Positions 18,206-61,658 of a DNA stretch of 64,000 bases are shown here, piece by piece. The translations under genes were made by a program, and so were the position numbers. Location: assembly GCA_964444615.1 (NCBI GenBank), contig CAYUHY010000002.1, positions 4,469-68,468 on the forward strand, given 5' to 3'. Each line of letters begins with the position of its first letter. The first letter of the stretch is position 1. This stretch comes from an uncultured Candidatus Saccharibacteria bacterium. GTDB taxonomy: Bacteria; Patescibacteriota; Saccharimonadia; Saccharimonadales; Saccharimonadaceae. Below the pieces are notes generated by a model, which was given only the letters and a program-made list of their open reading frames with translations, did not search any database and was not told the DNA's origin.

Positions 18206-18230
18206 AAATGTTGTAAAAATTACAACATTT
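18206..18230. repeat. Palindrome family copy P1 (AAATGTTGTAAAAATTACAACATTT)
   Basis: Perfect 9-bp arms with a 3-nt loop, 52 nt downstream of the rarA stop. Confidence 0.9.
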
Positions 18231-18332
18231 AGGTTAGCTAGGGTTCCTGATTAATTATCACCCGCATGCGTATTATATACCTTGCACCTCGCTCCAGACG
18301 TGCTATAATGAAAACATAATTAAGGAGTTAAT

Positions 18333-18863
18333 ATGGCGGATTTTAATAAAATTTTGCAACCAGGTGATTATGAGAATGGTGAAATCAATGTTGTAGTAGA
18401 GATTCCTACCGGTTCTAACCACAAGATTGAATGGGATCGCAAAAACGCTTGCTTTATGCTAGACCGGATTGAGCCGATGGCTTTTGCTAAGCCATGTAAT
18501 TATGGTTTTATTCCCCAGACTTTGGATGAAGATGGCGATGAGCTTGATGTATTATTGATTACAGATCAACCTCTCACGACTGGTATTTATACCAAGGCGC
18601 GCATCCTCGGCGTGATGAAGTTTGTGGATAGCGACGAAGTTGATGACAAGATTATCGCCGTAGTTGAAGATGATCGTAATAATGGTAATCATTATCAGAC
18701 GCTTGCAGATTTGCCAGAACAATTAATCAAGCAAATTGAATTCCATTTTAACCATTACAAAGACCTGAAGAAACCTGGCACTACCGAAGTCAAAGAGTTT
18801 GCGGATGCTAATGAAGCGAAAAAAGTCATTGCAGATGCAATTAAGCGTTGGAATGAGCAATAA
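18333..18863 (+). CDS. ppa: Inorganic pyrophosphatase, family I
   Basis: 176 aa. VVEIPTGSNHKIEWD and DGDELDVLL motifs. TGCTATAAT promoter and AAGGAG RBS upstream. Confidence 0.85.
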   Translation: MADFNKILQPGDYENGEINVVVEIPTGSNHKIEWDRKNACFMLDRIEPMAFAKPCNYGFIPQTLDEDGDELDVLLITDQPLTTGIYTKARILGVMKFVDSDEVDDKIIAVVEDDRNNGNHYQTLADLPEQLIKQIEFHFNHYKDLKKPGTTEVKEFADANEAKKVIADAIKRWNEQ

Positions 18864-18892
18864 TTTAATTCCTATTTGTGCAAATTGATTTT

Positions 18893-18927
18893 CTAAGAGC
18901 CCTTGTTTGTTGAGGGCTCTTAGTTTA
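18893..18927 (+). terminator. Terminator after ppa
   Basis: CTAAGAGCCC-loop-GGGCTCTTAG followed by TTTA. Confidence 0.55.
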
Positions 18928-18980
18928 CTAGGGTTAGTTTTAAGCCCGATTTTAGCTAATTAAGGTATAATAGCACTATT

Positions 18981-19643
18981 ATGAGAATACTATATGTAGA
19001 AGACGAAGAGCGTTTGGCATCGGCGGTGATTTATATGTTGAAAAAAGAGCATATCGCCGTAGACTGGACACCGGATGGCGAAGAGGGTTTGCGGATGGCG
19101 TTGAAAGGCGGCTATGATTGCATTGTACTAGACATTATGTTACCGCACTTATCTGGCACAGAAATCTTACAGACAGTGCGTCAGCATAATATCGCTACGC
19201 CGATTTTGATGCTCTCGGCTTTGGCGGAAGTAGAGGACAAAGTTAGTAATTTGGAGTCGGGTGCAGATGATTACCTTGCTAAACCATTCAAGACGGCAGA
19301 GCTGATTGCGCGGATTAAAGCGATTACACGGCGTCCACCTTTGCAGATGGATGAGGTAATTAAATTTGCTGATTTAGAATTTGATCTCAAAAATCGGACT
19401 TTGAATGGTGTTGTGCTTACTGGCAAAGAAGCGGATTTGTTTGAGCCCTTGATTCGTAATCCTGAAAAAATCCAACACAAGGAACAGTTATTAGCGCGGA
19501 CTTGGGGTAATGAGGCCTTGTCTTCGGATAATTATGTTGAAGTTTATATGAGTTATTTGCGTAAGAAATTAGAACAACTGCATTCGCACGCTACCATCAA
19601 AACCATTCGCAATTTAGGTTATAAGCTGACGGAGCGAAAGTAA
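18981..19643 (+). CDS. OmpR-family response regulator
   Basis: Receiver domain (DCIVLDIMLP, phospho-acceptor Asp) plus a winged-helix C-terminus (TIRNLGYKL). ATG lies 9 nt after TATAAT. Confidence 0.85.
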   Translation: MRILYVEDEERLASAVIYMLKKEHIAVDWTPDGEEGLRMALKGGYDCIVLDIMLPHLSGTEILQTVRQHNIATPILMLSALAEVEDKVSNLESGADDYLAKPFKTAELIARIKAITRRPPLQMDEVIKFADLEFDLKNRTLNGVVLTGKEADLFEPLIRNPEKIQHKEQLLARTWGNEALSSDNYVEVYMSYLRKKLEQLHSHATIKTIRNLGYKLTERK

Positions 19644-19646
19644 TTA

Positions 19647-20588
19647 ATGTTTCGGCACCTACGCAATCGACTGATTTTTATTAATTTAGCCGTAACCACC
19701 TTGGTGTTGCTTTTGGCTTTTTCGTTGATTTACGTAGTTGCACAAGAAGGCGCGCAACGCCGCAAAACAATTTCGGCTGATATTATACCAGGCTACACCC
19801 AAATTGTGATTCAGGCGGTGAACGAACGGGTTTTGGCGGAGCGCGATGAAGCGTTAAACTCGTTACTGGTTTCTTTAATTATCGTAGGGCTTTCTGTAGA
19901 GGTAGCAGTGGCAGTTTTGTCCTATATTCTAGCCGAGGCTTCGATTCGGCCAGTCAAAGAAGCTTACGAAACTCAAAAAGTTTTTATTGCCAATGCTAGT
20001 CACGAGATGAAAACCCCAATTGCTGCAATTATGGCAAATTTGGAAGTGGCAGATATTCAAGATAATCCTTGGATTGATAATGTTACGCATGAAGTGGAGG
20101 CATTGGCTAGTCTCAATAGTGATCTTCTGGCTTTGGCGCGAGTAGAAAATGCCATGAGCATTGCAAAAACTCCTGAAACGGTGATTTTAAAAGATTATGT
20201 AGAATCTTTGATTGCACCTTTTCGACCGCGCATTAAAACTCAGCAAGTAGATTTTGAATTAAAAACGCAACTAAAATCGGGCAAAGTCAAGCTGGTAAAA
20301 TGCGATTTCGGGCAAATTGTTTCTATTCTGCTCGATAATGCCCTCAAATATTGCGATAAGCAGATCAAAATTACTTTGACTGCTAAGAGCTTCGTGATCG
20401 AAAATGATGGTAAAACCATTGCTGCAAAAGATCTTCCGCATATTTTTGACCGTTTTTACCAAACCGACAAAAGCAGCGAGGGCGTAGGGCTGGGTCTCGC
20501 AATTGCAAAAACTATTGCCGATCACGAGGGCTGGAAATTAACCGCCGTCTCGGATGCTACAACTTCTACTTTTACGCTCGAGTTTTAG
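19647..20588 (+). CDS. Sensor histidine kinase
   Basis: Two TM segments, H-box FIANASHEMKTPI, and a C-terminal HATPase (DRFYQTD...GLGLAI). Confidence 0.8.
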   Translation: MFRHLRNRLIFINLAVTTLVLLLAFSLIYVVAQEGAQRRKTISADIIPGYTQIVIQAVNERVLAERDEALNSLLVSLIIVGLSVEVAVAVLSYILAEASIRPVKEAYETQKVFIANASHEMKTPIAAIMANLEVADIQDNPWIDNVTHEVEALASLNSDLLALARVENAMSIAKTPETVILKDYVESLIAPFRPRIKTQQVDFELKTQLKSGKVKLVKCDFGQIVSILLDNALKYCDKQIKITLTAKSFVIENDGKTIAAKDLPHIFDRFYQTDKSSEGVGLGLAIAKTIADHEGWKLTAVSDATTSTFTLEF

Positions 20589-20705
20589 AGCTTAGTTTCT
20601 TGCAGTTCAAAAGTATTTTTCCCAGTTCAAAAGTACTGCATTTAGTTCTTCCGTCCCACAAAAATCTCCGCCCAAAAGCAGTGAATTTATTTCTGCTATC
20701 TTAAA

Positions 20706-22499
20706 TTAGTTTTCTTCCATAAAAGCACCGGATTGGCGCGCCCAAAGTTGATGATAGGTGCCGTCGGGTTTTTCTAGCAATTCTTGATGTTTTCCCTGCT
20801 CGACAATTTTACCATTTTCTAATACCACGATGCGATCAAGATTAGCCACGGTAGAAAGGCGATGCGCAATTACCACGCTAGTGCGCCCAGTCATCAAAGT
20901 ATTTAAAGCATCCTGGATCAAGGCTTCCGATTCTGAGTCGAGTGCCGAAGTAGCTTCGTCCAAGACGAGAATTGGAGCGTCCTTGAGGATAGCGCGCGCA
21001 ATTGCTATACGTTGGCGTTGCCCACCGGATAATTTAATGCCGCGTTCGCCAACCAAAGTTTCGTAACCGTCAGGAAGCTCCATAATAAAATCATGCGCAT
21101 TGGCTAACTTTGCTGCTCGCTGGATCTGTTCGGGGGTAGCGTCGGGATCACCATAAGCAATATTTTCGGCAATGGTACGATGGAAGAGCGCCGTCTCTTG
21201 GGGCACATAAGCAATGTTTTCGCGCAGACTTTTTTGAGTGAGGTGTTTAATGTTTTGGCCAGCAATAGTAATCTCCCCGGTATCCACATCCGCAAAGCGG
21301 AGCAATAATTTGGTCAAAGTAGTTTTGCCGGATCCAGACATTCCCACCAAACCAATCCGCTCGCCAGGTTTGACTTCAAGATTAAAATGCTCAAAAATTG
21401 GCGTTTTAGCATCTTGATGTTGAAAAGTAATATCGTTGAAGGAAATATCGGTATTCTCCAGCTCCAAAGGTTGGGCGTCGCGCGCATCCACCACATCGTC
21501 CACGGTATCAAGAATCAAGGTCATGTCGTGCGCATCGCCAAATGCGCGGTTAATGTTTTTGAAGATATGGGTAATGCTCCAGAGCTCACCCTGAATACTT
21601 TGGGTATAATTTACAATCAAAATCAAAGTTGCCACCGAAATTCCTAGCCAATCACGCCCCACGATTAAGAAGATCAAAATTAATGCCGTAATTCCTACTT
21701 GCACGGAGCTAAACATAATGTCTTGCCGGATAGTTGCGGTCATCAACTTTTGTCCCGCAGCAAAATTATTATGCGCAAATTTGGAATAACGTGATTTTTC
21801 GTGTATCTCTTTGGCATAGGATTTTACCGAAATGATGTTAGAAATAGAGTCAGCCAACTGACCGGTTTGCTTAGCCTCGGCCGCCGCTTCTTCTTCGTTG
21901 AGATGACTAATCCTCCGAAAACAGAGTCCAGCGATAGTAGCATAAATAAGTACAAACGCTATTAGGCCCACGGCATACCACGGCACTTGCGGAGCTAGCA
22001 CACATACTACCATGATGACATAGGTTGATGTTGGCCAGAGATCCCAAATAAAGACATCTACAAGACGCTCAAAGGAATTAACAAATTTATTGGTCTGCGA
22101 AACCAACGATCCAGAGAAGCGGTCGCTATGAAACTGCATTGATTGCTCAGAAATGACGTCAAAGCACAAATTTGCCAAATCATACATTGCCATCAGCTCC
22201 ATTTTCCAGCACCAATAGAGACGCAGTTCTTCTAATATAACTTTGCTGATAATGTAAAGCAGTATGAAAAATATTACTTCGCCGAGGGCGACATTAAGTA
22301 GCTCACCTAAGGATAGACCTTGAGAGACTTTTTCGATCAAATCAGCACAAATCAGAGGCGCCAAAACCGCCCGAATAAATACCACCACGGGCGTCACAAT
22401 AAAGGCGCCCAGAGCATACCATTTATACTTGACTAATTCGCGCCAAAAATAGTGCATTGTGCGCCAAGTCGTTGATTTTTGAGCCGAATTTTTACCCAT
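20706..22499 (-). CDS. ABC exporter, fused permease/ATPase (MsbA/MDR-like)
   Basis: 597 aa. Walker A GMSGSGKTT, signature LSGGQRQR, Walker B ILVLDEATS, and an N-terminal 6-TM domain. Confidence 0.85.
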   Translation of the reverse strand: MGKNSAQKSTTWRTMHYFWRELVKYKWYALGAFIVTPVVVFIRAVLAPLICADLIEKVSQGLSLGELLNVALGEVIFFILLYIISKVILEELRLYWCWKMELMAMYDLANLCFDVISEQSMQFHSDRFSGSLVSQTNKFVNSFERLVDVFIWDLWPTSTYVIMVVCVLAPQVPWYAVGLIAFVLIYATIAGLCFRRISHLNEEEAAAEAKQTGQLADSISNIISVKSYAKEIHEKSRYSKFAHNNFAAGQKLMTATIRQDIMFSSVQVGITALILIFLIVGRDWLGISVATLILIVNYTQSIQGELWSITHIFKNINRAFGDAHDMTLILDTVDDVVDARDAQPLELENTDISFNDITFQHQDAKTPIFEHFNLEVKPGERIGLVGMSGSGKTTLTKLLLRFADVDTGEITIAGQNIKHLTQKSLRENIAYVPQETALFHRTIAENIAYGDPDATPEQIQRAAKLANAHDFIMELPDGYETLVGERGIKLSGGQRQRIAIARAILKDAPILVLDEATSALDSESEALIQDALNTLMTGRTSVVIAHRLSTVANLDRIVVLENGKIVEQGKHQELLEKPDGTYHQLWARQSGAFMEEN

Positions 22500-22506
22500 G
22501 TTAAAT

Positions 22507-22535
22507 ATTATAATCAGAAAATTCCCCTATGTCAA
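22507..22535 (-). promoter_or_regulatory. Promoter of the ABC exporter (leaderless)
   Basis: On the - strand: TTGACA, 17 nt, TATAAT. ATG 22499 follows 7 nt after the -10. Confidence 0.6.
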
Positions 22536-22588
22536 TGAAGTTATAGAAAACAGGAAGTCTATCCAGAAAAGACCTTCTCTAGGTATAA

Positions 22589-22609
22589 ATGTTGTAAAAA
22601 TTACAACAT
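22589..22609. repeat. Palindrome family copy P2
   Basis: ATGTTGTAAAAATTACAACAT lies in the divergent promoter region between the ABC exporter and orphan B. Confidence 0.9.
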
Positions 22610-22646
22610 TTTAATTGACAATATAGCCAGATTAAGCATAAAAGTA

Positions 22647-22675
22647 TTGACTTTTTCGCTAATCTGTGATACAAT
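22647..22675 (+). promoter_or_regulatory. Promoter of orphan gene B
   Basis: TTGACT, 17 nt, TGTGATACAAT. It implies a ~136-nt 5' UTR. Confidence 0.6.
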
Positions 22676-22732
22676 AGAGATATATAGGTAAAACTATATC
22701 GTACTTTATGAGATTGATTTACTTCTGAGGTT

Positions 22733-22781
22733 GTTTCTGCCCTAATTGTTTATCTAAAGGGTGGATAATTAGGGCGGAAAC
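22733..22781 (+). promoter_or_regulatory. 15-bp stem hairpin in the 5' UTR of orphan B
   Basis: GTTTCTGCCCTAATT ... AATTAGGGCGGAAAC (one G-U) with a 19-nt loop containing GTGGAT. It lies 37 nt upstream of the ATG. Confidence 0.6.
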
Positions 22782-22817
22782 AGCGAAATTCGCCGAATAT
22801 TTGAAAGGAGGGAGCTT

Positions 22818-23750
22818 ATGAGCTTCCAGAGAGAACTTGCAGAAAAACTCAGCGTAAAAACCGGCTGCAAAATTACCGAGGAGCATATCCACTCCGACAA
22901 TCCCGGCTATCACTATTATATTCGGGATTTGCAGTCCGAGCATCCCCTGTTCCTCATCCACTACCGGACGGTGCCGATGTGCATCCTGCCCGACGCCGAC
23001 TTCCAGCGGCTCAGCATTGGTCAGATCACGCCTGAAGATTACATTGATCAGGCACGGTGGTCTTACGGCCGCTACTGGGGTGGCGGGTCTTTGCTGGGTG
23101 GTATCTACTGGCAGCCGTTGGAAGATACGCGCGGCATTCATGACACCGCTACGATCAGTCGCTACCTGCAGATTCTGATGTGCAGAACCCTTGCGCATTC
23201 CTCCGGCTATCGCCCGACTACCACTGTTTGCTGTAACTGCAAGCTGGACTCTACTACCTGCCCGCTCTCGGCAATGAACTTGACTGGAGATTGGGCTACT
23301 GAGATCCAGGAGCCGGACGCTCGCGTGGAATTGCTCAAAGTTTTGCAGCACTGGCTGGACGTGGAGTATGGGTTCGAGAAGGTGTATACCGTCCTGACCC
23401 ACCGCGGCAAGATCAACGAAGTGCACTTGATGCCTCCCGCCAATCGGTCCGAAGATTGCGTCACCTTAGTCATCAGCACGGCCTTGCATAACGCCATGCT
23501 CGATAAGACGATTGACGTGCGCGTTTTGGATCAGCTGGTGCGCAGCTTCAAGTTTAAGACGGGTCAGGGCTTCCCCAAAACCACTGCACTGGCGGAAATT
23601 CCGTCCGATGTGGTAGACCCGCACCAGTTCTGCCTGGACTGCTGGGGTTTCTCGGAGGATGAAGACTTGACGTGCACTGACGAGGATAGCCAGGCAAATG
23701 ATGATAACCATCCGTTGTTCGGCTGGCTGCATCGCTTGGTGAAGAAGTAA
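22818..23750 (+). CDS. Hypothetical protein, orphan cassette B (310 aa), G+C-rich, Cys-containing
   Basis: GGAGGGAG RBS. CCNCKLDSTTC and FCLDCWGF cysteine clusters. Acidic tail. I recognise no family. Confidence 0.6.
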   Translation: MSFQRELAEKLSVKTGCKITEEHIHSDNPGYHYYIRDLQSEHPLFLIHYRTVPMCILPDADFQRLSIGQITPEDYIDQARWSYGRYWGGGSLLGGIYWQPLEDTRGIHDTATISRYLQILMCRTLAHSSGYRPTTTVCCNCKLDSTTCPLSAMNLTGDWATEIQEPDARVELLKVLQHWLDVEYGFEKVYTVLTHRGKINEVHLMPPANRSEDCVTLVISTALHNAMLDKTIDVRVLDQLVRSFKFKTGQGFPKTTALAEIPSDVVDPHQFCLDCWGFSEDEDLTCTDEDSQANDDNHPLFGWLHRLVKK

Positions 23751-23762
23751 TCAACTCAGACG

Positions 23763-23796: not shown

Positions 23797-23813
23797 CTTG
23801 AAATTTTCTCTTA

Positions 23814-31749: not shown

Positions 31750-31770
31750 GTGTTGTAATTTTTACAACAC
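31750..31770. repeat. Palindrome family copy P3 (GTGTTGTAATTTTTACAACAC)
   Basis: The outermost base pair is changed on both arms (A/T to G/C), which preserves the palindrome. It is followed by TTTTTT, 22 nt after the rpmA stop. Confidence 0.9.
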
Positions 31771-40614: not shown

Positions 40615-43188
40615 TTAAATCACCATGGCACCGATTTTGGCGGCAGCCTCAATCACGGCAGTCATAATCGTAGTGATTTCGGTGGCGTCTAGAGTGTGTT
40701 CGGGGCTAGAAAACTTGAGTCGGAATGAATAATTCTTGTGCTCAGTATCAGCTTGGTAAATTGATAGGGGTTGCACAGAATAGATGAGATGCTGGCGCTT
40801 GAGAGCCTTGTAAATCTCATCGCTCACGCGGCCAAAAGGCAGATCTGTGGCCACCTTAAAGGTAACGTCTCGTTCCACGGATGGGAATTTGGACATTTTG
40901 ACATCAACGGCAATATCGGGTTGCAGATTAACGACTTCGTCGAGCTCAATTTCGGCGGCGCTGATAGTCTGGTCGAGCTTGAAGCGGCGCAAAACGGCAG
41001 CTTTGACTTCGCCAAAGGCGCCAATTCTCTTACCGCCGGCTAATAATTCGACCGAGCGAACCGGCTCTAAATAAGGATAGAGCTTGGTGGATTCAGAACC
41101 AGGGGCCATGCGGACGTATTCGATGTCGATTTTGAGACCGCGCTCGAGGGCGGCAAAAATCTTGGCTTTGAGGGCGTAGTAATCACCTAGAGAGACAATG
41201 CCTAAATCGGTCTTTACGGTAGGTACGTCATCCGCATCCAGACCATATTGGCGGCCGGTGACTTGGTTCATTTCGTAAATGGTGAAATTTTTGTGGCCAG
41301 ATTTGATATTTTCGCGCACTTTGTCTAAGAGGCTAGGGACGATTTGCTGGCGGAAACATTGCAACTCCGGGGAAATCGAATTGATGATTTCGTAGCTGTT
41401 TTCGAGATTTTGGCCGACTTTTTCGAGAAGACTGCGGCTCACGAAGGAATAGGTAAGCAGCTCGTTCATAGCCAGGCGATGCGAGAGAATACCACGGAGA
41501 TTCTGTTTGAGCTGGAGCATGGGGGCGATTTCAGTGCCAGAAAAAGGTTTTTCGGGCAGGGTAAGGGCAATATTATCGTAGCCCAAGAGGCGGCCAACTT
41601 CCTCAATAATATCCTCGGGGATATGAATATCGGTACGCCAAACCGGGGCGGTTACTTCTAATTCTGCATTAACAGAGGTAGATGCATTTAGAGGCTGTTT
41701 TTGGGTCGCTGGTGAGGTTTTTGCCTCGGAGCTTGGTGTTACCGCACTTTTGACCGCACTGGCCTTAGAAGCGGTTTTTGAGGCCTCTGCGGGCATTTTG
41801 CTTATGATTTTTACCTGAAAACCGACGTTTTCGAGGGTACGGATAATGGTGTCGGTGTCATAATTAGTGCCGAGAAGGCCATTGATAGCTAATGTTGTAA
41901 TTTTTACAACATTTTCGGTGCGGTCAGCAACCCATTCATCTACTACGGCGAGCGGCGTGACGGATTTGCCTAGCTCTGCGATTGTCTCCGCTAGGACTGG
42001 AAAAGTCATCGCAGCAGGCTGACCCTTGGTGAAGCGGGTGATCGCCTCAGAAAAGATACCATGCGCCATCTGGGTTTTGCGCAGATTATAGAGAGAAAAG
42101 GTAGCACTTTCTAAGACCACACGCTGAGTGGAGGCATCGATTTCGGTGTTTTTGCCGCCCATCGCTCCGGCGAGAGCGACAGGGACGTTATTGCTAGTGA
42201 TTAAAATATCTTCTGGGATACATTCGATAGTTTTGCCGTCGAGGAGTTGCAGAGTTTCTCCAGCTTCGGCGGCACGCACGATGATCTGCGGAGTCTTGGT
42301 GCCACCTACGGTGATTAATTTGTCGTAGTCAAAAGCATGCAAAGGCTGTCCGGTGCGAAGCATGATCATATTGGTGAGGTCGACAATCGGATCGATGGAG
42401 CGCATGCCGGCTTTGGCCAAGAAGACATCACCGTAATAAGTGAGATATTTAGCTTTGTCGTGTTTAGGGAGATCGAAGACGGCACAGGAATAGCGCGGAC
42501 AGAGAGTCTTATCAGCGATCTTGACAGTGATCGGTAAATCTTGTACGAGAGCTAATTCTGGCCAAGTAGGCTCGGTAAAAGGCTGCCCCAGAATTCCTGC
42601 CACTTCGCGAGCAAAACCAATCAGGCCAAAGCAGTCAGGGCGGTGAGTGAGGGATTTATTCTCGACGTCGAGGATAATATCATTGAGCTCAAACACATCC
42701 GCAAAGCTATCGCCAGGTTTGGCCATATTGGGGTTAATCTCGACGATACCCTCGTGATCAGTACCGAGGTCTAGCTCATCGGCGGCCGCGAGCATACCAT
42801 TAGAATCGTAACCGCGCAACTTGCGCACACTGAGCTTGAAATTTTCGTTGCCGTAGGTCTGCGGAACGATGCTGCCAGGCGCAATCCAAGCTGCAAGCAT
42901 ACCTGCATGGACATTAGGGGCGCCGCAAACTACTTGAATCAGGCCGCCTTTTTCGGCTAGCTCCGTGCGCATACCACCAGCGTCGATTTTGCATAAGTGG
43001 AGATGAGTATCAGGGATTTTTTCTTCAGAGACCACCTTGACGATGTAGATTCCTTTGTATTTGGGTGCCAAATCAGTCGCGGATTCTACCTCGACCAGCC
43101 GTGTACCGATGAGGTCGATAAGCTCTTGATCGGTCTGCGGGATTGGGGTTTGTAAATATTTTTTAATTTCATTGAGCGAAATCAACAT
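40615..43188 (-). CDS. pheT: Phenylalanine--tRNA ligase beta subunit, with a ~45-aa Ala/Ser/Thr/Lys-rich insertion
   Basis: 857 aa with the tRNA-binding, B3/4, B5 and C-terminal domain order. The insertion is AEASKTASKASAVKSAVTPSSEAKTSPATQKQPLNASTSVN. Confidence 0.9.
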   Translation of the reverse strand: MLISLNEIKKYLQTPIPQTDQELIDLIGTRLVEVESATDLAPKYKGIYIVKVVSEEKIPDTHLHLCKIDAGGMRTELAEKGGLIQVVCGAPNVHAGMLAAWIAPGSIVPQTYGNENFKLSVRKLRGYDSNGMLAAADELDLGTDHEGIVEINPNMAKPGDSFADVFELNDIILDVENKSLTHRPDCFGLIGFAREVAGILGQPFTEPTWPELALVQDLPITVKIADKTLCPRYSCAVFDLPKHDKAKYLTYYGDVFLAKAGMRSIDPIVDLTNMIMLRTGQPLHAFDYDKLITVGGTKTPQIIVRAAEAGETLQLLDGKTIECIPEDILITSNNVPVALAGAMGGKNTEIDASTQRVVLESATFSLYNLRKTQMAHGIFSEAITRFTKGQPAAMTFPVLAETIAELGKSVTPLAVVDEWVADRTENVVKITTLAINGLLGTNYDTDTIIRTLENVGFQVKIISKMPAEASKTASKASAVKSAVTPSSEAKTSPATQKQPLNASTSVNAELEVTAPVWRTDIHIPEDIIEEVGRLLGYDNIALTLPEKPFSGTEIAPMLQLKQNLRGILSHRLAMNELLTYSFVSRSLLEKVGQNLENSYEIINSISPELQCFRQQIVPSLLDKVRENIKSGHKNFTIYEMNQVTGRQYGLDADDVPTVKTDLGIVSLGDYYALKAKIFAALERGLKIDIEYVRMAPGSESTKLYPYLEPVRSVELLAGGKRIGAFGEVKAAVLRRFKLDQTISAAEIELDEVVNLQPDIAVDVKMSKFPSVERDVTFKVATDLPFGRVSDEIYKALKRQHLIYSVQPLSIYQADTEHKNYSFRLKFSSPEHTLDATEITTIMTAVIEAAAKIGAMVI
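41892..41912. repeat. Palindrome family copy P4, inside the pheT coding sequence
   Basis: ATGTTGTAATTTTTACAACAT is read in frame on the - strand within AAT GTT GTA AAA ATT ACA ACA TTA (N V V K I T T L). Confidence 0.9.
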
Positions 43189-45527: not shown

Positions 45528-45688
45528 TATTTGACGGGATTTTCACCGACTCCCAGCCTACGGCTGGGAGTTTTGGTTGGGATGATTTTTGAGATAAATT
45601 ATGAGAATGTAGGGTGGACTGTGAGGATGTTGTGAGGGTGTTGCGGGGATGTCGTGAGAGTGATGTTGCGAAAATGTTTTTTGCAAGA

Positions 45689-45709
45689 ATGTTGTATTTT
45701 TTACAACAT
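45689..45709. repeat. Palindrome family copy P5 (ATGTTGTATTTTTTACAACAT)
   Basis: 8-bp arms, downstream of the MIP gene. It is preceded by degenerate GRTGTTGYG repeats (45620-45690). Confidence 0.85.
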
Positions 45710-45812
45710 TTTATTTGAGGTTTTGTTTGATATGGGATTGTGATTTATTTTATAGTAGTTTATCCTGTTTAGAGTTACTGACAATTTGGGAAATTTTTGT
45801 TATAATAATTTT

Positions 45813-47768
45813 ATGGTTAAAAACCGCTCAGAAGCTAAGTCTTCAGAACCATCTTCTCGCAAGCGAAGTCGAATTCAGCGCGGTCTGCATCCGATGCCGG
45901 CTTTTTTGCGTGTGTCTTGTACAATACTTTTTTTGATGGTGATTTCGATCTTTTTTACCTGGTTTATTTTTTGGCGGCAAAACTTATGTGATGCTGATGC
46001 AGCTTGGAAATTCGTACAAGAAAAACCAGTTTTGGCTGAATATAGCTATTTGGTAGTGTTTTGTTTGCTGACGGTAATAGCGGCAGTAACTTGGCGGCCG
46101 TTTTTTAGCGCGGGACTTTTCTTCTGTATTATTAGCGTGATTACTTTTATTCACATTCAGAAATTTAATCTGCGGGCGGCGCCGCTATTGCCAGAAGAAT
46201 TCCAGATGGCGGATTCGGTGGGTAATTTAATCGAATTTATTGATATCGAAGCGATGTGGCGGTTGATTTTTGGGGTGATTTTTACTCTGGCTGGTTCGAT
46301 ACTTGCTGAATATTATGTGCGAAAATTCTGCGGACGCAATCCGCGTAGGTTGGCTTGGTGGGACCGAATTGCTTTGGTGCCGCGAGTGACTTTTTCGATG
46401 ATTGCTTTGGCATTACTGTCTACTGTTGCGGGAGTCGTGATTAACCGGCGTGATACGAGCTGGCTAAAGGGTCTGAATCTCATCGCTTGGAACCAAACTG
46501 ATAATTACGAAGAAAATGGTTTTATTATTGGGTTTCTATATAATATGGGCAACGATGAAGCGAAGCGGCCTGATGATTATAGCCAAGAGGCGATTTATGA
46601 AATTGCGGACAAATATCGCGAGCGTAAAGCGGCGGATACCGGTCGCGAAGATTGGGACGAGGTAATTGATAATTTAGTGATTATTCTGAATGAGAGTTTT
46701 TATGATCCAACGCTGCTGACGGAGCATTACAGCCATTCGGGCGGTGATGTGACGCCGGTTTTGCACCGCATTTTCCAGGAATATCCTAGTGGCTACATGT
46801 ATTCTCCGGAGTATGGCGGCAATACAGCAAATGTGGAGTTTGAGGTGCAGACGGGACTTTCTAATTATTGGGCAATGTCGTTCCCTTATGTAAACTCGGT
46901 TTCTAAAATGGATACTTTGCTAAGTGCGGCGGATTATGGTAAAAATATGTATGATTTTAATACTTTGGGAATTCATTCGTACGATGGGACGATGTACAAA
47001 CGCAACTTGGTTTATCGCATCTTGGGATATGATGATTTCATCGACAGCTCGACTATGAAACACACCGAGCGGGAGAATGCCAGTACGGTGATTAACGATC
47101 GATCAATTTATCAAGAAATTATTGATATGCTGGAGGAGAATAAAAATCCGCAAGTGATTGGTGCGGTGACGATGCAAAATCACGCGCCTTATGCGCAAGC
47201 AAAATACGACAAGATTCAGTTCCCGCTCTACAATCGGATTGATGACTGGGTTTTGATCGAAGCGAGCTTCCAGAGTTTACACGAGTCGGATAAATATCTG
47301 GGCGAATTCTTAGAGCAAATTGATGAACTTGATGAACGCACGGTAGTGTTGTGGTTTGGGGATCATGCCGCGGGCGTATTGGAGTCATACATTTCTTCGG
47401 AAGACAAGGACGAGGTGAATATTGCGCATCTCACGCCGTATTTCGTCTATGCTAATTTTGAAATCGAAAGTCCCTACACGATGAGGACCACTGCTAAGCT
47501 TAATCGCGAGCAAGGTTTCGTGTTCCCGACTTACGGAGTGGATCTTCCTACTGTGACGCCGAATTGCCTACTAAATACTGTATATAATATATTAAATATT
47601 AGCAAGCCGTCCCTATATTATTTGGTGGATGATGTTTGCGAAAAAGTGCCGATCTTGGCGCGTTCTTACCAAGATGGCAAAAGCGTAGAAAATATTCCAG
47701 CCTTGAGAGCTTACCAGCTAGTGAATTACGATATTCTGAATGGTGAGCGGTATTGGGATGGGTCGTAG
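45813..47768 (+). CDS. LtaS-like sulfatase-family membrane enzyme (phosphoglycerol-transferase type)
   Basis: N-terminal 5-TM region plus an extracytoplasmic domain with VIILNESFYDP and VLWFGDH motifs. ATG 45813 lies 6 nt after TGTTATAAT. Confidence 0.65.
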   Translation: MVKNRSEAKSSEPSSRKRSRIQRGLHPMPAFLRVSCTILFLMVISIFFTWFIFWRQNLCDADAAWKFVQEKPVLAEYSYLVVFCLLTVIAAVTWRPFFSAGLFFCIISVITFIHIQKFNLRAAPLLPEEFQMADSVGNLIEFIDIEAMWRLIFGVIFTLAGSILAEYYVRKFCGRNPRRLAWWDRIALVPRVTFSMIALALLSTVAGVVINRRDTSWLKGLNLIAWNQTDNYEENGFIIGFLYNMGNDEAKRPDDYSQEAIYEIADKYRERKAADTGREDWDEVIDNLVIILNESFYDPTLLTEHYSHSGGDVTPVLHRIFQEYPSGYMYSPEYGGNTANVEFEVQTGLSNYWAMSFPYVNSVSKMDTLLSAADYGKNMYDFNTLGIHSYDGTMYKRNLVYRILGYDDFIDSSTMKHTERENASTVINDRSIYQEIIDMLEENKNPQVIGAVTMQNHAPYAQAKYDKIQFPLYNRIDDWVLIEASFQSLHESDKYLGEFLEQIDELDERTVVLWFGDHAAGVLESYISSEDKDEVNIAHLTPYFVYANFEIESPYTMRTTAKLNREQGFVFPTYGVDLPTVTPNCLLNTVYNILNISKPSLYYLVDDVCEKVPILARSYQDGKSVENIPALRAYQLVNYDILNGERYWDGS

Positions 47769-47808: not shown

Positions 47809-47829
47809 ATGTTGTAAAAATTACAACAT
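47809..47829. repeat. Palindrome family copy P6
   Basis: ATGTTGTAAAAATTACAACAT lies between the convergent LtaS-like and metG genes. Confidence 0.9.
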
Positions 47830-48013
47830 TTTGATGGGGGCTGAGGGCTACTGTTGGAGGTGTGGAGTTTGAGTATGTTTAAGTGGATTTCGCGGAGTGG
47901 GGTTTAACTGGATTATTATATAATGATGGTAGGCTTTCTAACTAGAATGCCTTAAAGAAGAGCAAAAATCCCCACGCTAACGGTAGGGATTTCTGGCGTT
48001 AATGATAGCTGTT

Positions 48014-56109: not shown

Positions 56110-56136
56110 TAGAAACCCCTCAGCAGAGCTGAGGGG
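56110..56136 (-). terminator. Terminator of orphan E
   Basis: CCCCTCAG-CTCTG-CTGAGGGG followed by TTTCT on the - strand. Confidence 0.7.
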
Positions 56137-56255
56137 CGCAGGGGTAAAAGTAGGTTTGGAGTTTGAGGCTAGCCAGCGTCGTACTCTCAAGTTGAGCCGC
56201 GAATTGCCCGAGTGCAGGCGTGAACCTATGCTATATAGGGAAAGTTTGGGGGTGA

Positions 56256-57044
56256 TCAGAGTACCACGGAGCCGCAGTCGGCTTCTTCGGCGATGCAGAT
56301 CAGATCTTCGAGGCAATTGACATCATAGGCATTGAGGCCAAAGCTCTCGCAGATAATCTGGCTGCCATCACCGCTGAGATAGTACACGGTCAAGTCATTA
56401 TCCTCCAGGTAGGCGGTCCACCCCAGCTGATCGCGGGCATAGAGAGCCAGCGTCATCAATTCGTGACGGTACTGCTCAGCATATTCTTCGGCATCAGCCG
56501 CACAGAGGGCGTTCAGGGTCAGGTCCAACTGATGCTCTTCCTCAAGCTCGTCAAACAGAGCGCGCAGCTCCGGCGTCAGGGACGCGGCATACAGGCTAGA
56601 GCCACTATTCTCAGTCGTGAAGGTGCCGAGACTTTTCCAGTTATGCTTTGCAGCATAGTCGATACTGCGGCGAAGGTCCTGGGTGTTAGCCACAAAGAAT
56701 TGCAGCAGCGCGTCGGTAGCTTCAGCCGGAGTGGTAAGCGTGACGCACTCAGTCTTCTCGTCGTAGCGGCAAGCATAGACCGTCACCTGCTCGCACGGGA
56801 AGAGATCCAGAGCCCGCACCAGGCGGAGATCGGTGGCGTCGATGATAGCATGAGGCCAGGCTACGGCGCCACTATAGTATACCGGCAGGACAGGCGAAAA
56901 AGCGATTTTCAGGGGGAAATCGTCGCTAAGAGGGCCGCAGAAATTGCCATCCGGAGCAACTGTGATGTCGCCACTGACGTTGTAGCGAGCCTCCAGCAAG
57001 GTTACCTTCCTCATCCGAGGAGCAATAATTTTGCGATAGTCCAT
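56256..57044 (-). CDS. Hypothetical protein, orphan cassette E (262 aa), G+C-rich, acidic
   Basis: AAGGAGGA RBS. I recognise no family. C/G-ending codon usage is unlike the neighbours. Confidence 0.6.
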   Translation of the reverse strand: MDYRKIIAPRMRKVTLLEARYNVSGDITVAPDGNFCGPLSDDFPLKIAFSPVLPVYYSGAVAWPHAIIDATDLRLVRALDLFPCEQVTVYACRYDEKTECVTLTTPAEATDALLQFFVANTQDLRRSIDYAAKHNWKSLGTFTTENSGSSLYAASLTPELRALFDELEEEHQLDLTLNALCAADAEEYAEQYRHELMTLALYARDQLGWTAYLEDNDLTVYYLSGDGSQIICESFGLNAYDVNCLEDLICIAEEADCGSVVL

Positions 57045-57081
57045 AGTGTCCTCCTTAGTTTTATTCTGCCTTTTCCGTTGT

Positions 57082-57171
57082 AATCGGCAGTATTATATTG
57101 ACAAATTGGTGATTTGGTAGGTTTGTGGCGTGGATTGGGTTCGTAGCGTTGTCAATATGATATTGCCGATT
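57082..57171 (-). promoter_or_regulatory. ~23-bp imperfect inverted repeat in the orphan E leader, immediately upstream of its RBS
   Basis: AATCGGCAGTATTATATTGACAA (57082-57104) pairs with TTGTCAATATGATATTGCCGATT (57149-57171). Confidence 0.55.
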
Positions 57172-57199
57172 AGCTCGGGGCATAAGGATGGAGTTGGCT

Positions 57200-57325
57200 G
57201 TGGTGACTGAAAATAGGGAGGGTATTTGACTGTATCAGGTAGAAATTTGACTATATGGGCTGGAAATAGGGAGGGATCTGATCGTATTAGCTGGAAATAA
57301 GGGGATTTGACCATATGGGCTGGGA
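57200..57325. repeat. Degenerate ~30-bp tandem repeats inside the orphan E leader
   Basis: GCTGGAAATAGGGAGGGAT...TTGACNATATGG-like units recur about 4 times. Confidence 0.6.
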
Positions 57326-57376
57326 TTTTACTTTTACCATTAAAAAACTTGGGGAGAAAAAACACCCCATATCTTC

Positions 57377-57405
57377 ATTATAGCACACTTTATGTAAAAA
57401 GTCAA
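57377..57405 (-). promoter_or_regulatory. Promoter of orphan E (implies ~325-nt leader)
   Basis: TTGACT, 17 nt, TGTGCTATAAT on the - strand. An ATG 6 nt after the -10 opens a 27-codon uORF. Confidence 0.6.
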
Positions 57406-57525
57406 TGGTTTTGCTGTGATCGTGGGATTGTTCTATAGTTTTTCTCAATAACTATGTTTTGATCTAGCTTTCTTGATAGAGGTAGCAGATTACGGATAGG
57501 GCAAAGCCTGTGATTATGGCTACTC

Positions 57526-60054
57526 CTAGCCCTCCCACACTGGTAAATCTTCAGGGAAAGGGTCAAAATCGGAGCCAAATTCGTCAAAATCACCGGTAGC
57601 ACTAGTCTCGATGATAGTGGGCTCGCTGGCAAAATCTGGTGAACCAGCAAAACTATTGTCGCCAGACAAATCCTGCGAACTAGTGAAGCTATTATCGCTA
57701 CCGCCAAATTCCCCATCCGGGTCGCCACCGAGGAGACCAAAGCTCTCGCTGCCACTATAAAATGCTCCGGATTCGCCAAAATTACCACTGCCGTAAGGTT
57801 CGTAGCCGAGCTCAAGCAAAAAGCGAGAGGGCGGATTGTAATTTCTGCCGCCAAAACTGTAGCGCGAGCCGGCAAAAGTGAGGAAAAGCTCTTGCATGGC
57901 GCGGGTCATACCAACGTAGGCTAGGCGGCGCTCTTCTTCGAGCTCGTCGGCGGAATCGTTGGAACGGCTGCTGGGGAAAAGCCCCTCCTCTAGGCCGACC
58001 ATGAAGACCACTGGAAATTCCAAGCCCTTGGCAGCATGCAGAGTCATCAGGGAGACAACGTTGTCGCCGGCTGATTCATCGGCGGAACTCAGCAATGCGG
58101 CGTCCTCCAGGAATTCTTCTAGTGTATCATAAACGCTAGCGTTGCTGGCGAGCACCTCGATATTTTGCATGCGCTCTTCCCCGTCGGGAGTGTCGGTGCG
58201 TAGGAGCATGCCAAAGTTAAACTCACTGACGATGCGCTCGATAATCTCGGCAGCGGTAATATTATGATCGGCGCGCATGGTCTGCAGGAATTTTTCTACC
58301 TTGCGGACGGCGCTGTCGGCACGAGCAGTGAGCTTGAGATCGCCCAAATCGGCGAGATTGTGCTCGGGATGCTCATTGAGGTAGCTAAAAATCTTATCTA
58401 CAGAAGCCGCCCCCACACCGGTCAGAATATTCTTGACCACCCGCTCGAAGCTGACGCGATCCAGCGGATTGACAATCAGTTTGAGCAGAGCCAGGACATC
58501 CTTCACCTCTTTGCGATCGTAAAAACGCACGCCACCGATGATTTTGTAGGGGATTTTTGCGGCGATAAAAGCTTTCTCAAAAGCGCTGGATTGAGCGTTG
58601 GTGCGATAAAGCACGGCGAAATCGCTGAAATTATGATACTTGGACTGGAGAAAGCGGATTTGGCGCGCAACGTAATTGGCTTCGGCGGTCTCGTCCAGCA
58701 CGCCCTCAATATTAACCGGATCACCATCACCGGACTCCGTAAAGAGCTTTTTCTCGGTACGGGTCTTGTTTTGATTGATGATTTTTTGGGAGGCGGCGAG
58801 AATATTGCCGGTACTGCGGTAGTTTTGCTCTAGCTTGATGACTTTGGCGCCGGGAAAATCGCGTTCAAAATTAAGAATATTGGTGAAATCTGCGCCCCGC
58901 CAAGAGTAAATCGACTGCCAGTCATCGCCAACCACGCAGATATTGCGCTGCTCATTGACCAGAGATTTGATGAGGCGATACTGGACGGAGTTGGTATCCT
59001 GATACTCGTCGATTAGAATATAACGGAATTTTTGCTGCCATTTTTGACGAACTTCGGCGTTCTTGGCAAACATGTCGGCGGTAATGGTGAGGAGATCGTC
59101 AAAGTCGAGAGCGTCGGCGGCGCGTTTCTCAGCCTCGTAGCGGGCATAGATCTCGGCGATTTTCTTCTGATTGGGGTAGTAAGCCTCGCGCTTGGCGTCA
59201 GAGACTTTGATGCCGTGATTTTGGTAATTGCTAATGGCGCTAAGGGCGTTCTTGGGGGTGAGAGATTTATCGCCGGTCATTTTGAGATCTTTCATGACGC
59301 GCCGAATCAGGGTGAGCTGATCGTCGGTGTCGTAGATGGTGAAATTCGCGCCCACGCCGGCGGCTTCGTGCTCGATATGCAAAATGCGCACGCAAATCCC
59401 ATGAAAAGTCCCCATGTAGGGCATAAAATTGCGGGGGCACTGGGTCGTTTCGGGGTTCGCGGCTTCGGGGGATAGGGAGGCAGAAGTGCTGGCGGGATTT
59501 TGCGGGTTTTCGGAGGCCTGGGAGTTTTCTGTAATTGCGGAGATTTTGACGTTTTCCGCGTTTTCGGGGTTTTCGGGAGTTTGGAGCGTAAAAGTAGCGT
59601 TTTTGGCTAATCCGCTAGAGGTTTTTTGCATTTTAAGGCCATTTTTAGACGATTCTAGCGATTTTGGGCCCGAAGTGCTGTCTGACGGCGCTTGAAAATT
59701 AGAGGGGCCTTGCAGGGCATCCTCGCAAGCATTACCGGGATTCTGAAGCTGTTCAACATTGATGCGTAGACCAGATAGACCTTGACTACGATCACGTTGC
59801 TCGCGAAGAGCGTTTTTGCGCTGCGCCTCGAGGAGCTTCCAGAGGCGAGTACGCATTTCTTTGGCGGCTTTGTTGGTAAAAGTGACGGCCAAAATCTGGT
59901 CTGGGCGCGTGCCGTGAGCGATAAGATTAGCAATGCGATGCGTGAGGACCTTGGTTTTACCCGATCCAGCCCCGGCCAACACTAAAACGGGACCTTCTAG
60001 TGTCTCGACTGCCTCCTGCTGGGGAGGATTCAAACCTCGCACGATTGCATCCAT
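57526..60054 (-). CDS. pcrA: ATP-dependent DNA helicase PcrA/UvrD with ~140-aa low-complexity insertion and Gly/Ser/Asp/Phe-rich tail
   Basis: AGAGSGKTKVLTHRIA, TFTNKAAKEM, ILIDEYQDTN and VSLMTLHAAKGLEFPVVF. Start at ATG 60054, 6 nt after TGCTATAAT (60061-60072). Confidence 0.9.
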   Translation of the reverse strand: MDAIVRGLNPPQQEAVETLEGPVLVLAGAGSGKTKVLTHRIANLIAHGTRPDQILAVTFTNKAAKEMRTRLWKLLEAQRKNALREQRDRSQGLSGLRINVEQLQNPGNACEDALQGPSNFQAPSDSTSGPKSLESSKNGLKMQKTSSGLAKNATFTLQTPENPENAENVKISAITENSQASENPQNPASTSASLSPEAANPETTQCPRNFMPYMGTFHGICVRILHIEHEAAGVGANFTIYDTDDQLTLIRRVMKDLKMTGDKSLTPKNALSAISNYQNHGIKVSDAKREAYYPNQKKIAEIYARYEAEKRAADALDFDDLLTITADMFAKNAEVRQKWQQKFRYILIDEYQDTNSVQYRLIKSLVNEQRNICVVGDDWQSIYSWRGADFTNILNFERDFPGAKVIKLEQNYRSTGNILAASQKIINQNKTRTEKKLFTESGDGDPVNIEGVLDETAEANYVARQIRFLQSKYHNFSDFAVLYRTNAQSSAFEKAFIAAKIPYKIIGGVRFYDRKEVKDVLALLKLIVNPLDRVSFERVVKNILTGVGAASVDKIFSYLNEHPEHNLADLGDLKLTARADSAVRKVEKFLQTMRADHNITAAEIIERIVSEFNFGMLLRTDTPDGEERMQNIEVLASNASVYDTLEEFLEDAALLSSADESAGDNVVSLMTLHAAKGLEFPVVFMVGLEEGLFPSSRSNDSADELEEERRLAYVGMTRAMQELFLTFAGSRYSFGGRNYNPPSRFLLELGYEPYGSGNFGESGAFYSGSESFGLLGGDPDGEFGGSDNSFTSSQDLSGDNSFAGSPDFASEPTIIETSATGDFDEFGSDFDPFPEDLPVWEG

Positions 60055-60198
60055 TACCTCATTATAGCACGATTCGCTTGAGAGGAAAGGCAAAAATCAG
60101 AGATTTTACTTCTTAGCACCAAAGTGAACTCTAGTATTCCAACGGGCGACTGATTTAGGTCAAAAGAGGTGATTTTTTGCTACAATCGAGATTTATAT

Positions 60199-61428
60199 TT
60201 ATTTTTTGCGCCAATCGAGGCCACGTTTGTGACGGAGGTGAATCAAATAATAGCAGACCCCTAACTGTACGGCCAAGACTAATGCCGAAGCGCCCAACAT
60301 GGCGCCAATGCCAAAATCGTACATGCGCCCACAGATAAACATACCTAGCGCCTCGCCAAGATAAGAGATGACATTGCGAAAAGTGCCGTATTTGAGCTGG
60401 TGGCGATTATCAATAGCATTGATATAATAGCCGTCGCTGACATCCTCATAGGCGGTGGCGCTGAGCAGAGCCCAGATAAAGGCGATAAAGCATAGGAACA
60501 TATTATCCGTCAAGACGGCGACCGTAAAGGCGACCAAGCGCAGGCCGAATTTAAGCGTGATAGTAACGTAATCATTGCGCGGAGTGAAATATTTGAGGGC
60601 AAAAATACCAATCATATCCGCAATGAGCCCGACCACGAGCAGGCAGTTCGTAGCTACGCTAGGGGTAAAGTCAAAGATATTGGTAAGCACAAGCATTTTA
60701 AGGCCCACGGCAGCCTGGAACGAGACCGACGAGAGGAAGTTATAGACCATGTAGACCTGCTGGACGCGATTGCGCATGGCGATTTTGACGACCGGGAGAG
60801 GCTTGGCGGGCGAACGGCTTTGGGTGAGTTCGACCTCGAGCTGATACATGATAATAATAGAGACGACGAGAAAAGCGGCCGCCACCAGCAAACAGCCATT
60901 GTAGTCGAAGAGCCAGTTACCGAGATGGTGGCCAATTAGGACACCGCCAACCAAAATACCGAGGTCGCGGAAAAGATATTCCACGAGTTTGCGGCGGCTG
61001 TAGGCTTTATTGCTCTTCATTACCGTAGTAAGGAGCGGGTACAGGCTGGTAAAGATAATGTAAGCGGTAGCGACGTCAATGGATATACAGATAGTAATGA
61101 CCGCGGTGTTTCCCTCCATATTGAGGCAAAAAAGCGCGAGTAAGTTCAAAAATCGACCCATCAAGGCGACGGTGACGAGATTTTTGATTTGGGGCATTTT
61201 GATGAATTTGCCCACAATCACAATAGCACCCACGCCGATGAGCATGCTTAAGCTGAGAATATTACTGATTTGGGGCGCACTAAAGCCATTAGCTTCGAGC
61301 CAAAGCTGGCGGAAATTTTCCCAAAGCCCAGTAGAAATACTGACAAAAGCGATCATGGTCAAAATTTGGCGTTCCAAGCGCTTCCACTTTGGCGCGGGAG
61401 TACGATGCTGTTTCCATTTTTCGATCAT
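60199..61428 (-). CDS. MFS-type transporter
   Basis: About 12 hydrophobic helices. The first ATG (61437) lies only 1 nt from the TATAAT at 61439-61444, so ATG 61428 (10 nt after the -10) is preferred. This start choice is uncertain. Confidence 0.6.
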   Translation of the reverse strand: MIEKWKQHRTPAPKWKRLERQILTMIAFVSISTGLWENFRQLWLEANGFSAPQISNILSLSMLIGVGAIVIVGKFIKMPQIKNLVTVALMGRFLNLLALFCLNMEGNTAVITICISIDVATAYIIFTSLYPLLTTVMKSNKAYSRRKLVEYLFRDLGILVGGVLIGHHLGNWLFDYNGCLLVAAAFLVVSIIIMYQLEVELTQSRSPAKPLPVVKIAMRNRVQQVYMVYNFLSSVSFQAAVGLKMLVLTNIFDFTPSVATNCLLVVGLIADMIGIFALKYFTPRNDYVTITLKFGLRLVAFTVAVLTDNMFLCFIAFIWALLSATAYEDVSDGYYINAIDNRHQLKYGTFRNVISYLGEALGMFICGRMYDFGIGAMLGASALVLAVQLGVCYYLIHLRHKRGLDWRKK

Positions 61429-61637
61429 TTTGCCCATTATTATACTATTTTAACATAAAAAGAATCAAACACAAAAGTGAGTGAGTTGGCTTTGTTGCAT
61501 TTTTTATCAGAGACAGATGTTGCAAAAATCAATACAAATGGAATGGAATAGATAATTATGCAGCAATATCGAGAATCGTTTTGTATTTTTTTGCCAGATG
61601 GATATGCAGTAAAGGGCTTGTGAAGAGTGCAGTAAAA

Positions 61638-61658
61638 ATGTTGTAACAATTACAACAT
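61638..61658. repeat. Palindrome family copy P7 (ATGTTGTAACAATTACAACAT)
   Basis: Perfect 9-bp arms with loop CAA. It lies 60 nt downstream of the orphan F stop and upstream of the MFS promoter. Confidence 0.9.

Follow-up and report, generated by a model that had tools for sequence, protein, structure and literature searches.

The locus analysed here raises the question of what purpose is served by a 21-bp palindrome that recurs seven times, in nearly the same form, within 64,000 nucleotides of an uncultured Candidatus Saccharibacteria bacterium (GenBank assembly GCA_964444615.1, contig CAYUHY010000002.1, positions 4,469 to 68,468; this whole stretch is referred to below as the window). We infer that the palindrome is probably a word of duplex DNA read by a dimeric protein, and not an operator, and that it doubles as a weak transcription terminator. 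A pattern search for ATGTTGTAA-N3-TTACAACAT that tolerated up to 3 mismatches recovered seven matches in the window (copies 1 to 7; Table 1), with 0.02 expected by chance and no more than one in any dinucleotide-preserving shuffle; at this scale, the palindrome is far above chance, and the seven palindromes are a true, non-random family. Five of them are perfect. The copy at 31750 carries a paired outer change of A-T to G-C at both ends (GTG...CAC), which leaves the pairing intact, and the copy at 45689 has a single change beside the loop (TAA to TAT). The loops read AAA in three copies, TTT in three (one of them widened by the mismatch) and CAA in one, and the copies are flanked by (A)AA on one side and TT(T) on the other. 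In all of these points (seven copies, perfect or nearly perfect arms, variable loops, the compensated outer positions of the third copy, and A- and T-runs as flanks) the preliminary description of this DNA, made from the letters alone, proved accurate. The word has the core GTTGTAA-N3-TTACAAC and the full form (A)AATGTTGTAA-N3-TTACAACATT(T). Similarity between copies ends at about 25 bp, with no larger repeat or miniature inverted-repeat transposable element around them. The exact 9-mer arm occurs 11 times in the window, every time within a palindrome, and no lone arm was found there; the copies have at most 2 mismatches, none with 3 or 4 is present in the window, and the next best match has at least 5. 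An extension of the window by about 2.5 kb leftwards contained no further copy.

The word is shared by a large group of related genomes. A scan for the exact palindrome in one genome per bacterial and archaeal species returned at least 113 stretches. About 105 of the 113 listed come from some 87 metagenome-assembled genomes (MAGs) of Candidatus Saccharibacteria/Nanosyncoccus, obtained from ruminant, mouse and human guts, and the other 6-8 are single matches scattered over other phyla, roughly a chance number. The motif-bearing genomes have only about 65-75% identity (approximately 70%) with the window in shared coding DNA, yet the word is identical, so the palindrome is conserved far beyond the background; the conservation among relatives that the preliminary description had proposed to check is present. 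Our literature search yielded no account of the motif and, for Saccharibacteria, none of uptake sequences or conserved inverted repeats, and the family is apparently undescribed so far.

Comparison of these loci (designated below by L and a number) defines the unit of the signal. Of the arms counted in 855 kb of Saccharibacteria loci, 232 belong to palindromes and 6 occur singly, the latter being the chance level; the unit is therefore the whole palindrome, not the single arm. The spacing of the half sites is constant (TGTTGTA-N5-TACAACA), and variation is limited to positions 1, 2, 20 and 21 and to the centre, which is A/T-rich and variable, with AAA or TTT in about two thirds of the spacer copies. 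The strand of the centre relative to transcription is mixed in tandem sites (7 of AAA type, 10 of TTT type). Arms that do not vary, constant spacing and a centre that is free and indifferent to strand point to a symmetric dimer that reads duplex DNA. Such a protein would read the word across the chromosome at large and not at promoters.

The density of the word varies between lineages. Approximately one further site per 90 kb was counted in the 8-kb loci, with the copy used to find each locus excluded, and one per 25-45 kb in loci fetched independently of the motif. At one per 9 kb, the window exceeds these densities several-fold, suggesting that its lineage has gained spacer copies. Synteny with the window around pheT (genes in the order metG, sulfatase, MIP, pheS, pheT, sbcB, uvrA, L27 and xseA) is retained in L196-L199, but the corresponding spacers of L197-L199 are without copies 5 and 6; between species, spacer copies turn over.

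Within genes, the word recurs at few orthologous positions. Coding sites make up 83 of the 121 sites in related genomes among the stretches listed, and they occupy a split phosphoketolase in its C-terminal subunit (45 species), xseA at its 3' end (14), hisS (4), pheT (3, including copy 4 of the window), gatA, glmS and others. The word is present in at least 17 unrelated protein families, in 14 of them as [NDY]VV[KN][ILF]TT and in three as CC[KN][NF]YN; the third reading frame, which contains a stop, is never used. Orthologs without the palindrome are of equal length and differ at 8-11 bases and in several residues, with no indels: GALEKLTRF (window) corresponds to ENVVKITTF in hisS, KHFEDYH to KCCKNYN in gatA, GETVKAVTF or GSEVEIRLE to GNVVKITTF in xseA, and NQVNLVTF to NVVNLTTF in phosphoketolase. 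The coding word was thus made by substitution, radical residue changes included, and not by insertion. In pheT, the coding strand of copy 4 reads AAT GTT GTA AAA ATT ACA ACA (NVVKITT), a peptide found in 38 of 120 PheT homologs, and four orthologs picked blind to the DNA word read AA[CT] GTT GTA AAA AT[TC] ACA AC[AG]. Among six pheT orthologs, a single codon is used in only 22 of the 409 columns with an invariant degenerate amino acid, and the V, V and T encoded by the palindrome account for three of these 22. Finally, in an XseA tree computed with the site masked, orthologs with and without the site interleave. Taken together, the substitution origin, the synonymous conservation in pheT and the interleaving in XseA show a pressure on the DNA sequence itself.

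In spacers, the position of the word suggests an additional use. The 32 spacer sites comprise 23 tandem, 6 convergent and 3 divergent ones, compared with 56, 17 and 27%, respectively, of the spacer bases. For tandem sites, the median distance is 53 nt to the upstream stop and 164 nt to the next start, and 18 of the 23 are nearer to the stop (p = 0.011). The stem tends to continue into the flanks: in a test that pooled spacer copies of the window and of related loci, the mean extension was 2.2 bp compared with 1.41 bp in position-preserving shuffles, of which none in 5000 reached the observed value. Beyond A/T runs, such extensions include GTACTAA/TTAGTAC, CTTAGAT/ATCTAAG and ATAAGG../..CCTTAT, and the paired A-T to G-C outer change is common to copy 3 and L196-1446. 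A hairpin with a T-run lies just past the stop at copies 3, 6 and 7 and partly at copy 1, though not at copies 2, 4 and 5, and the T-run is missing from many spacer copies of relatives. By these features, the spacer copies appear to behave as weak hairpin terminators, and the hairpin of the word would be used as a weak, often bidirectional intrinsic terminator. The resemblance to bidirectional intrinsic terminators lies in the succession of A-run, hairpin and T-run seen in several copies and in the replacement of a canonical terminator by copy 3, since rpmA (L27) is followed in six relatives by a GC-rich hairpin and T-run of the ordinary kind, at the exact position that copy 3 takes in the window. 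Ordinary terminators, however, share structure and not sequence, and their stems are stronger: predicted RNA stabilities of the window copies range from -8.5 to -14.8 kcal/mol, compared with -16 to -22 kcal/mol for the GC-rich terminators of the window, so that folding energies bear out the weakness that had been noted for these stems.

The preliminary description placed most copies just after the 3' ends of genes. This holds for copies 1, 3 and 7 and for the convergent copy 6; copy 5, in contrast, is not the terminator of its upstream gene, encoding a channel of the major intrinsic protein (MIP) family, because a separate GC-rich terminator (45549-45571) lies 118 nt upstream. Copies 2 (divergent), 4 (coding) and 5 (behind another terminator) are without a terminator role. 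Termination alone does not explain the family, since copies are also present within coding sequence, past another terminator and in a divergent region, and about 87 of the species listed have the word in identical form; a function beyond termination, as suggested at the outset, is borne out.

What has kept such a word can be approached through its information content. At least 18 of its bases are near-invariant, and about 16 bits suffice for some 20 sites in approximately 1 Mb. Because of this excess of information, the all-or-none state of orthologous sites, the invaded tolerant frames and the turnover in spacers, we infer that a drive favouring the copies fits better than equilibrium evolution of a binding site. 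The single most likely mechanism, proposed tentatively and by analogy, would be a palindromic tag of self-DNA kept by such a drive and comparable to the DNA uptake sequence (DUS) of Neisseriaceae (GCCGTCTGAA and its dialects) and the uptake signal sequence (USS) of Pasteurellaceae (AAGTGCGGT). An uptake tag is chosen because DUS and USS also accumulate in terminators and genes and because Saccharibacteria are naturally competent, as has been documented (PMC10633639). The reader protein would be part of the DNA-uptake and recombination machinery of these bacteria, and alleles with the palindrome would be preferentially taken up and recombined. Such biased uptake would then lead to (i) the invasion of tolerant housekeeping frames, (ii) the gain and loss of spacer copies, and (iii) their build-up as terminators. 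It is possible, though more doubtful, that specifically a dimeric competence or pilus receptor prefers GTTGTAA-N3-TTACAAC and that terminators and at least 17 housekeeping proteins acquired the word through the drive.

The likeness to DUS and USS extends to several features: an exact, over-represented, clade-specific word present in many species, frequent positions just past genes (where inverted copies of DUS and USS form terminator hairpins), intragenic copies in tolerant frames at a cost in amino acids, turnover of individual copies, and a naturally competent host lineage with type IV pili. Of the three functions named in the preliminary description (operator, RNA-processing site and uptake-sequence-like word), the last is the best fit by terminator placement, in-frame copies, conservation in the clade and turnover; the expected lone half sites and high density were not found. 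These two points and several others weigh against an uptake tag. Laboratory transformation of Saccharibacteria used linear cassettes with homology arms, with no sequence requirement reported (PMC10633639), and the transformed strains belong to a different, oral clade. Lone half sites stay at the chance level given above, whereas DUS and USS are short asymmetric words that mostly occur singly. We know of no uptake sequence that is an obligate palindrome, as the 21-bp word is here. The word is also sparse: uptake words of Neisseria and Haemophilus occur roughly once per kb, compared with one per 40-90 kb in the relatives and one per 9 kb in the window, a density 10 to 100 times lower, and most DNA fragments would therefore be without a tag. 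No receptor candidate was identified, and the literature search yielded no report of an uptake bias for the word.

A further point against an uptake tag brings in the main rival, because sites of nucleoid or segregation proteins typically show up as 10-20 palindromes per genome. According to this explanation, which we consider rather unlikely as a whole, a dimeric nucleoid-organising or segregation protein, acting in the manner of ParB at parS, Noc at the Noc-binding site (NBS), SlmA at the SlmA-binding site (SBS) or MatP at matS, would occupy a few tens of exact palindromes wherever the chromosome tolerates them and act on its architecture or on division; a dispersed site of the Noc or SlmA kind is nearly as likely as the uptake tag. 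The obligate palindromic form with constant spacing and a free 3-bp centre, also found in matS (GTGACRNYGTCAC), suits this explanation, as do the estimated number of typically about 10-20 copies per genome, the exact conservation over some 87 species and the occurrence in both coding and spacer DNA. Like parS (TGTTNCACGTGAAACA), matS, NBS and SBS, the word is an exact, deeply conserved palindrome of dimer type, present in tens per genome and tolerated in coding DNA. Unlike these sites, it is not clustered at parAB or in any one region, its spacer copies undergo turnover and, in one lineage, expansion, where architectural sites are stable, and its longer arms hold about twice the information needed for some 20 sites in approximately 1 Mb. 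Placement in the manner of terminators and covarying flanks are likewise not predicted for a nucleoid protein site.

The relation to ParB deserves separate mention. ParA and ParB are encoded in Saccharibacteria (L049:1106-1942, L083:4094-4945 and L200-L203:10001-10861), yet six loci lack a canonical parS within 10 kb of parAB, which would leave room for another site of this protein. Canonical parS has no match with up to 2 mismatches in the 855 kb of Saccharibacteria loci; with up to 3 mismatches, parS (TGTTTCACGTGAAACA) is absent within 10 kb of parB in four parB-centred loci, and with up to 4 it is absent from two 8-kb parB-bearing stretches. The outer TGTT...AACA of the palindrome resembles parS, but only this part is common to both: 21 bp with a 3-bp centre stand against an even palindrome of 16 bp, and the spacing of the half sites is incompatible. 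Nor is the word enriched near parAB. The four loci chosen only for parB (L200-L203; 83 kb) hold two sites, both of them the xseA site, and L201 and L203 are without any palindrome; clustering as known for parS is rejected. No other shared palindrome was found near parB except the terminator after L21. A regional cluster was considered as well, since 25 of the 62 non-phosphoketolase loci map near the window. This share is due to a few conserved sites (xseA, hisS and pheT) and not to many distinct ones, and the distinct sites are dispersed.

The consequences differ between an uptake tag and a nucleoid protein site. [quoted passage not shown] If the palindrome is a tag for uptake or recombination, 25 bp added to donor DNA could raise transformation efficiency, genetics could be extended to the uncultured gut clade, and uptake signals would have evolved independently outside Proteobacteria; this would be the first uptake signal there and the first that is an obligate palindrome. 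If it is the site of a nucleoid protein, it would provide the first handle on chromosome organisation in the CPR. In either case, a signal at the level of DNA overrides protein sequence in essential genes, placing the peptide NVVKITT in PheRS, HisRS, XseA, GlmS and phosphoketolase and CCKNYN in GatA, and the palindrome can serve as a simple marker for the gut Saccharibacteria clade in metagenomes.

Less probable than either is a mobile hairpin, that is, a cassette resembling repetitive extragenic palindromic (REP) elements or a terminator, copied by a dedicated enzyme or by templated repair and acting only as a hairpin or terminator, with the identity of the copies due to common descent and not to a protein reading the duplex. 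We regard this as improbable, although a number of features of the spacer copies agree with it: their placement in terminator slots with T-runs and covarying flanks, their state of being either near-perfect or absent with no decayed intermediates, the expansion in the lineage of the window, close pairs (in L113, where the centres are inverted, and once more in L107), and the same AAA/TTT centre in about two thirds of them. REP elements and bacterial interspersed mosaic elements (BIMEs) are likewise short spacer palindromes, found mostly at 3' ends and in convergent spacers and sometimes in pairs, and they can stabilise or terminate transcripts, as proposed here for the spacer copies. The coding sites decide against it, since they arose by length-neutral substitution and are synonymously constrained, neither of which hairpin insertion explains. 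REP elements are, moreover, strictly extragenic, imperfect, GC-rich and specific to a species or genus, whereas the word is AT-rich, perfect, in frame in at least 17 protein families and common to about 87 species, persisting unchanged among genomes with approximately 70% coding identity. The copies share nothing past about 25 bp, copies 2 and 5 have no terminator job, and there is no transposase-like gene in the window, the rest of the genome not having been searched for a REP-associated tyrosine transposase.

An operator of a global dimeric transcription factor, the first function considered in the preliminary description, is very improbable. A palindromic architecture with an A/T-rich centre would suit it, and copy 2 does lie in a divergent promoter region, and in L196 the orthologous ABC-exporter gene has a variant copy just upstream. 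The distribution of the sites nevertheless speaks against an operator: only 3 of the 32 sites in spacers are divergent, with 27% of spacer bases being divergent, 6 sites lie in convergent spacers without promoters, tandem sites are nearer to stops than to starts, and many others are in the middle of genes. The sites have no fixed position relative to promoters, their distances to -35 elements varying from 48 to 80 nt without the core promoter ever being overlapped, and the upstream regions of orthologous genes do not retain the spacer sites. Known operators of CRP, CcpA (cre; TGTAAGCGCTTACA), PadR (ATGT-N8-ACAT), NtcA and GntR-type regulators have similar half sites, but the spacing differs in all of them. 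Least probable of all is a processing or stability hairpin recognised in transcripts, as the RNA-processing site of the preliminary description would be, for although hairpins of the above stability at the 3' ends of mRNAs, with flank covariation that lengthens the stem, are consistent with it, an invariant stem with a free loop is the opposite of what protein recognition of RNA hairpins predicts, the loop strand is random relative to transcription, one site lies in a divergent spacer that looks untranscribed, and no Rfam family matched anywhere in the window.

The positions of the seven copies are summarised in Table 1, in which one copy in a divergent promoter region and one inside pheT can be recognised, as first described.

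Table 1. Copies of the 21-bp palindrome in the window, with their form, genomic context and predicted RNA stability
Copy	Position	Sequence or form	Context	Stability (kcal/mol)
1	18208-18228	ATGTTGTAAAAATTACAACAT	53 nt past rarA stop; ~65 nt upstream of the -35 element of the ppa promoter	-13.7
2	22589-22609	perfect, loop AAA	between divergent sigma-70-like promoters	-8.7
3	31750-31770	GTGTTGTAATTTTTACAACAC then TTTTTT	21 nt past rpmA (L27) stop	-14.8
4	41892-41912		within pheT (40615-43188, minus strand)	
5	45689-45709	ATGTTGTATTTTTTACAACAT, one mismatch	~80 nt upstream of next promoter	
6	47809-47829	perfect, loop AAA	convergent spacer; 40 nt past stop of sulfatase/LtaS-like gene	
7	61638-61658	ATGTTGTAACAATTACAACAT	3' side of 76-aa open reading frame and alaS (both minus strand)	

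Copy 1 has complementary flanks (CTAA/TTAG) that lengthen its stem to 18204-18232. Copy 2 lies 51 and 67 nt from the -35 elements of its two promoters, of which that on the minus strand (22535-22530) belongs to an msbA-like ABC exporter gene and that on the plus strand (22647-22652) to a 310-aa gene of no assigned function. Copy 3 was flagged as terminator-like with 15 pairs, and the product of its upstream gene matches the L27 Pfam family. Copy 5 sits in an expansion of its spacer, about 170 nt long, GT-rich and specific to the window. The metG gene opposite copy 6 has its own GC-rich terminator (approximately 47966-47990). Copy 7 is followed on the minus strand by TTTTT and lies 200 nt upstream of a gene (60199-61437) resembling the major facilitator superfamily (MFS). 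The sole palindrome-like relic in the window, ATGTTGCAAAAATCAATACAA (61517-61537; 5 mismatches), is 120 nt from copy 7 and may be a decayed copy or a chance match.

Several features of the surrounding spacers were also recorded. Window-specific G/T-rich expansions with repeats such as GATGTTGTGAGGGTGTTGCGGGGATGTCGTGAGAGTGATGTTGCG flank copies 5 and 6 (45572-45690 and 47830-47950); the syntenic spacers of relatives measure 50-120 nt and are without them. TATAAT -10 boxes lie a few nucleotides from the ATG of the sulfatase-like and MFS-like genes (45779-45816 and 61437-61460), which suggests that their mRNAs are leaderless or nearly so; at ppa (18333), in contrast, a normal ribosome-binding site (AAGGAG) is present. 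In relatives, two copies may share one spacer, 43-461 bp apart, as in L113:1866-1929, L107:2777-2877 and L081:2810-3291, and the pair of L113 has inverted centres (AAA, then TTT), resembling the REP doublets known as REPINs.

The gene set of the window is reduced and of CPR type, with a short AlaRS, MetRS, PheST, UvrA, RarA, SbcB and PcrA, and it further includes FemAB, a Mur ligase, FISUMP surface proteins and an FtsA-like protein. No tRNA genes were found in the window. In L196 (approximately 6990-7410, minus strand), a tRNA-like sequence with the anticodon region CTGAAGA, recognised by eye between the MIP-channel gene and the serine hydroxymethyltransferase gene and near pheST, is probably tRNA-Phe.

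Two matches beyond the Saccharibacteria genomes were inspected. In a MAG labelled Candidatus Nomurabacteria (L001:721-741; JAISDN010000057.1), the exact palindrome is found in frame (VEDVVKITTF); either the word extends past Saccharibacteria or this bin bears the wrong label. In 2.9 million viral contigs there was one match, which is the chance level. It lies on a contig of 61.8 kb (L115:4945-4965; IMGVR_UViG_3300042691_041427), where the palindrome, with AAAA/TTTT flanks, spans the stop codon of a T4-type RNA ligase gene and is neighboured by NUDIX, nucleotidyltransferase and M15 peptidase genes. This contig may represent a phage of Saccharibacteria or a genome fragment filed in error.

Among the genes that carry or adjoin a site, those related to aminoacyl-tRNA synthetases (pheT, hisS, glyS, metG, alaS and gatA) account for about 6 of some 45 distinct sites in a count by eye, with examples in hisS of L008, L015, L030 and L044, at the 3' end of glyS (L196:1446), and in gatA of L021 and L046. 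Sites of this group, and those in or beside the genome-maintenance genes xseA, rarA and ftsK, seem in excess by eye. When metagenomes were scanned with the phosphoketolase alignment, most matches were distant phosphoketolases from other phyla, and L116-L119 alone were informative. The phosphoketolase itself is split into two overlapping open reading frames, an N-terminal one of about 310 aa and a C-terminal one of about 390 aa, in L056 (approximately 520-2632) and about 40 other loci (e.g., L012:3675-5746 and L038:1978-4049). The two overlap by 4-41 nt in different frames, the second has its own Shine-Dalgarno sequence, and the arrangement looks like a conserved two-subunit enzyme and not an assembly error.

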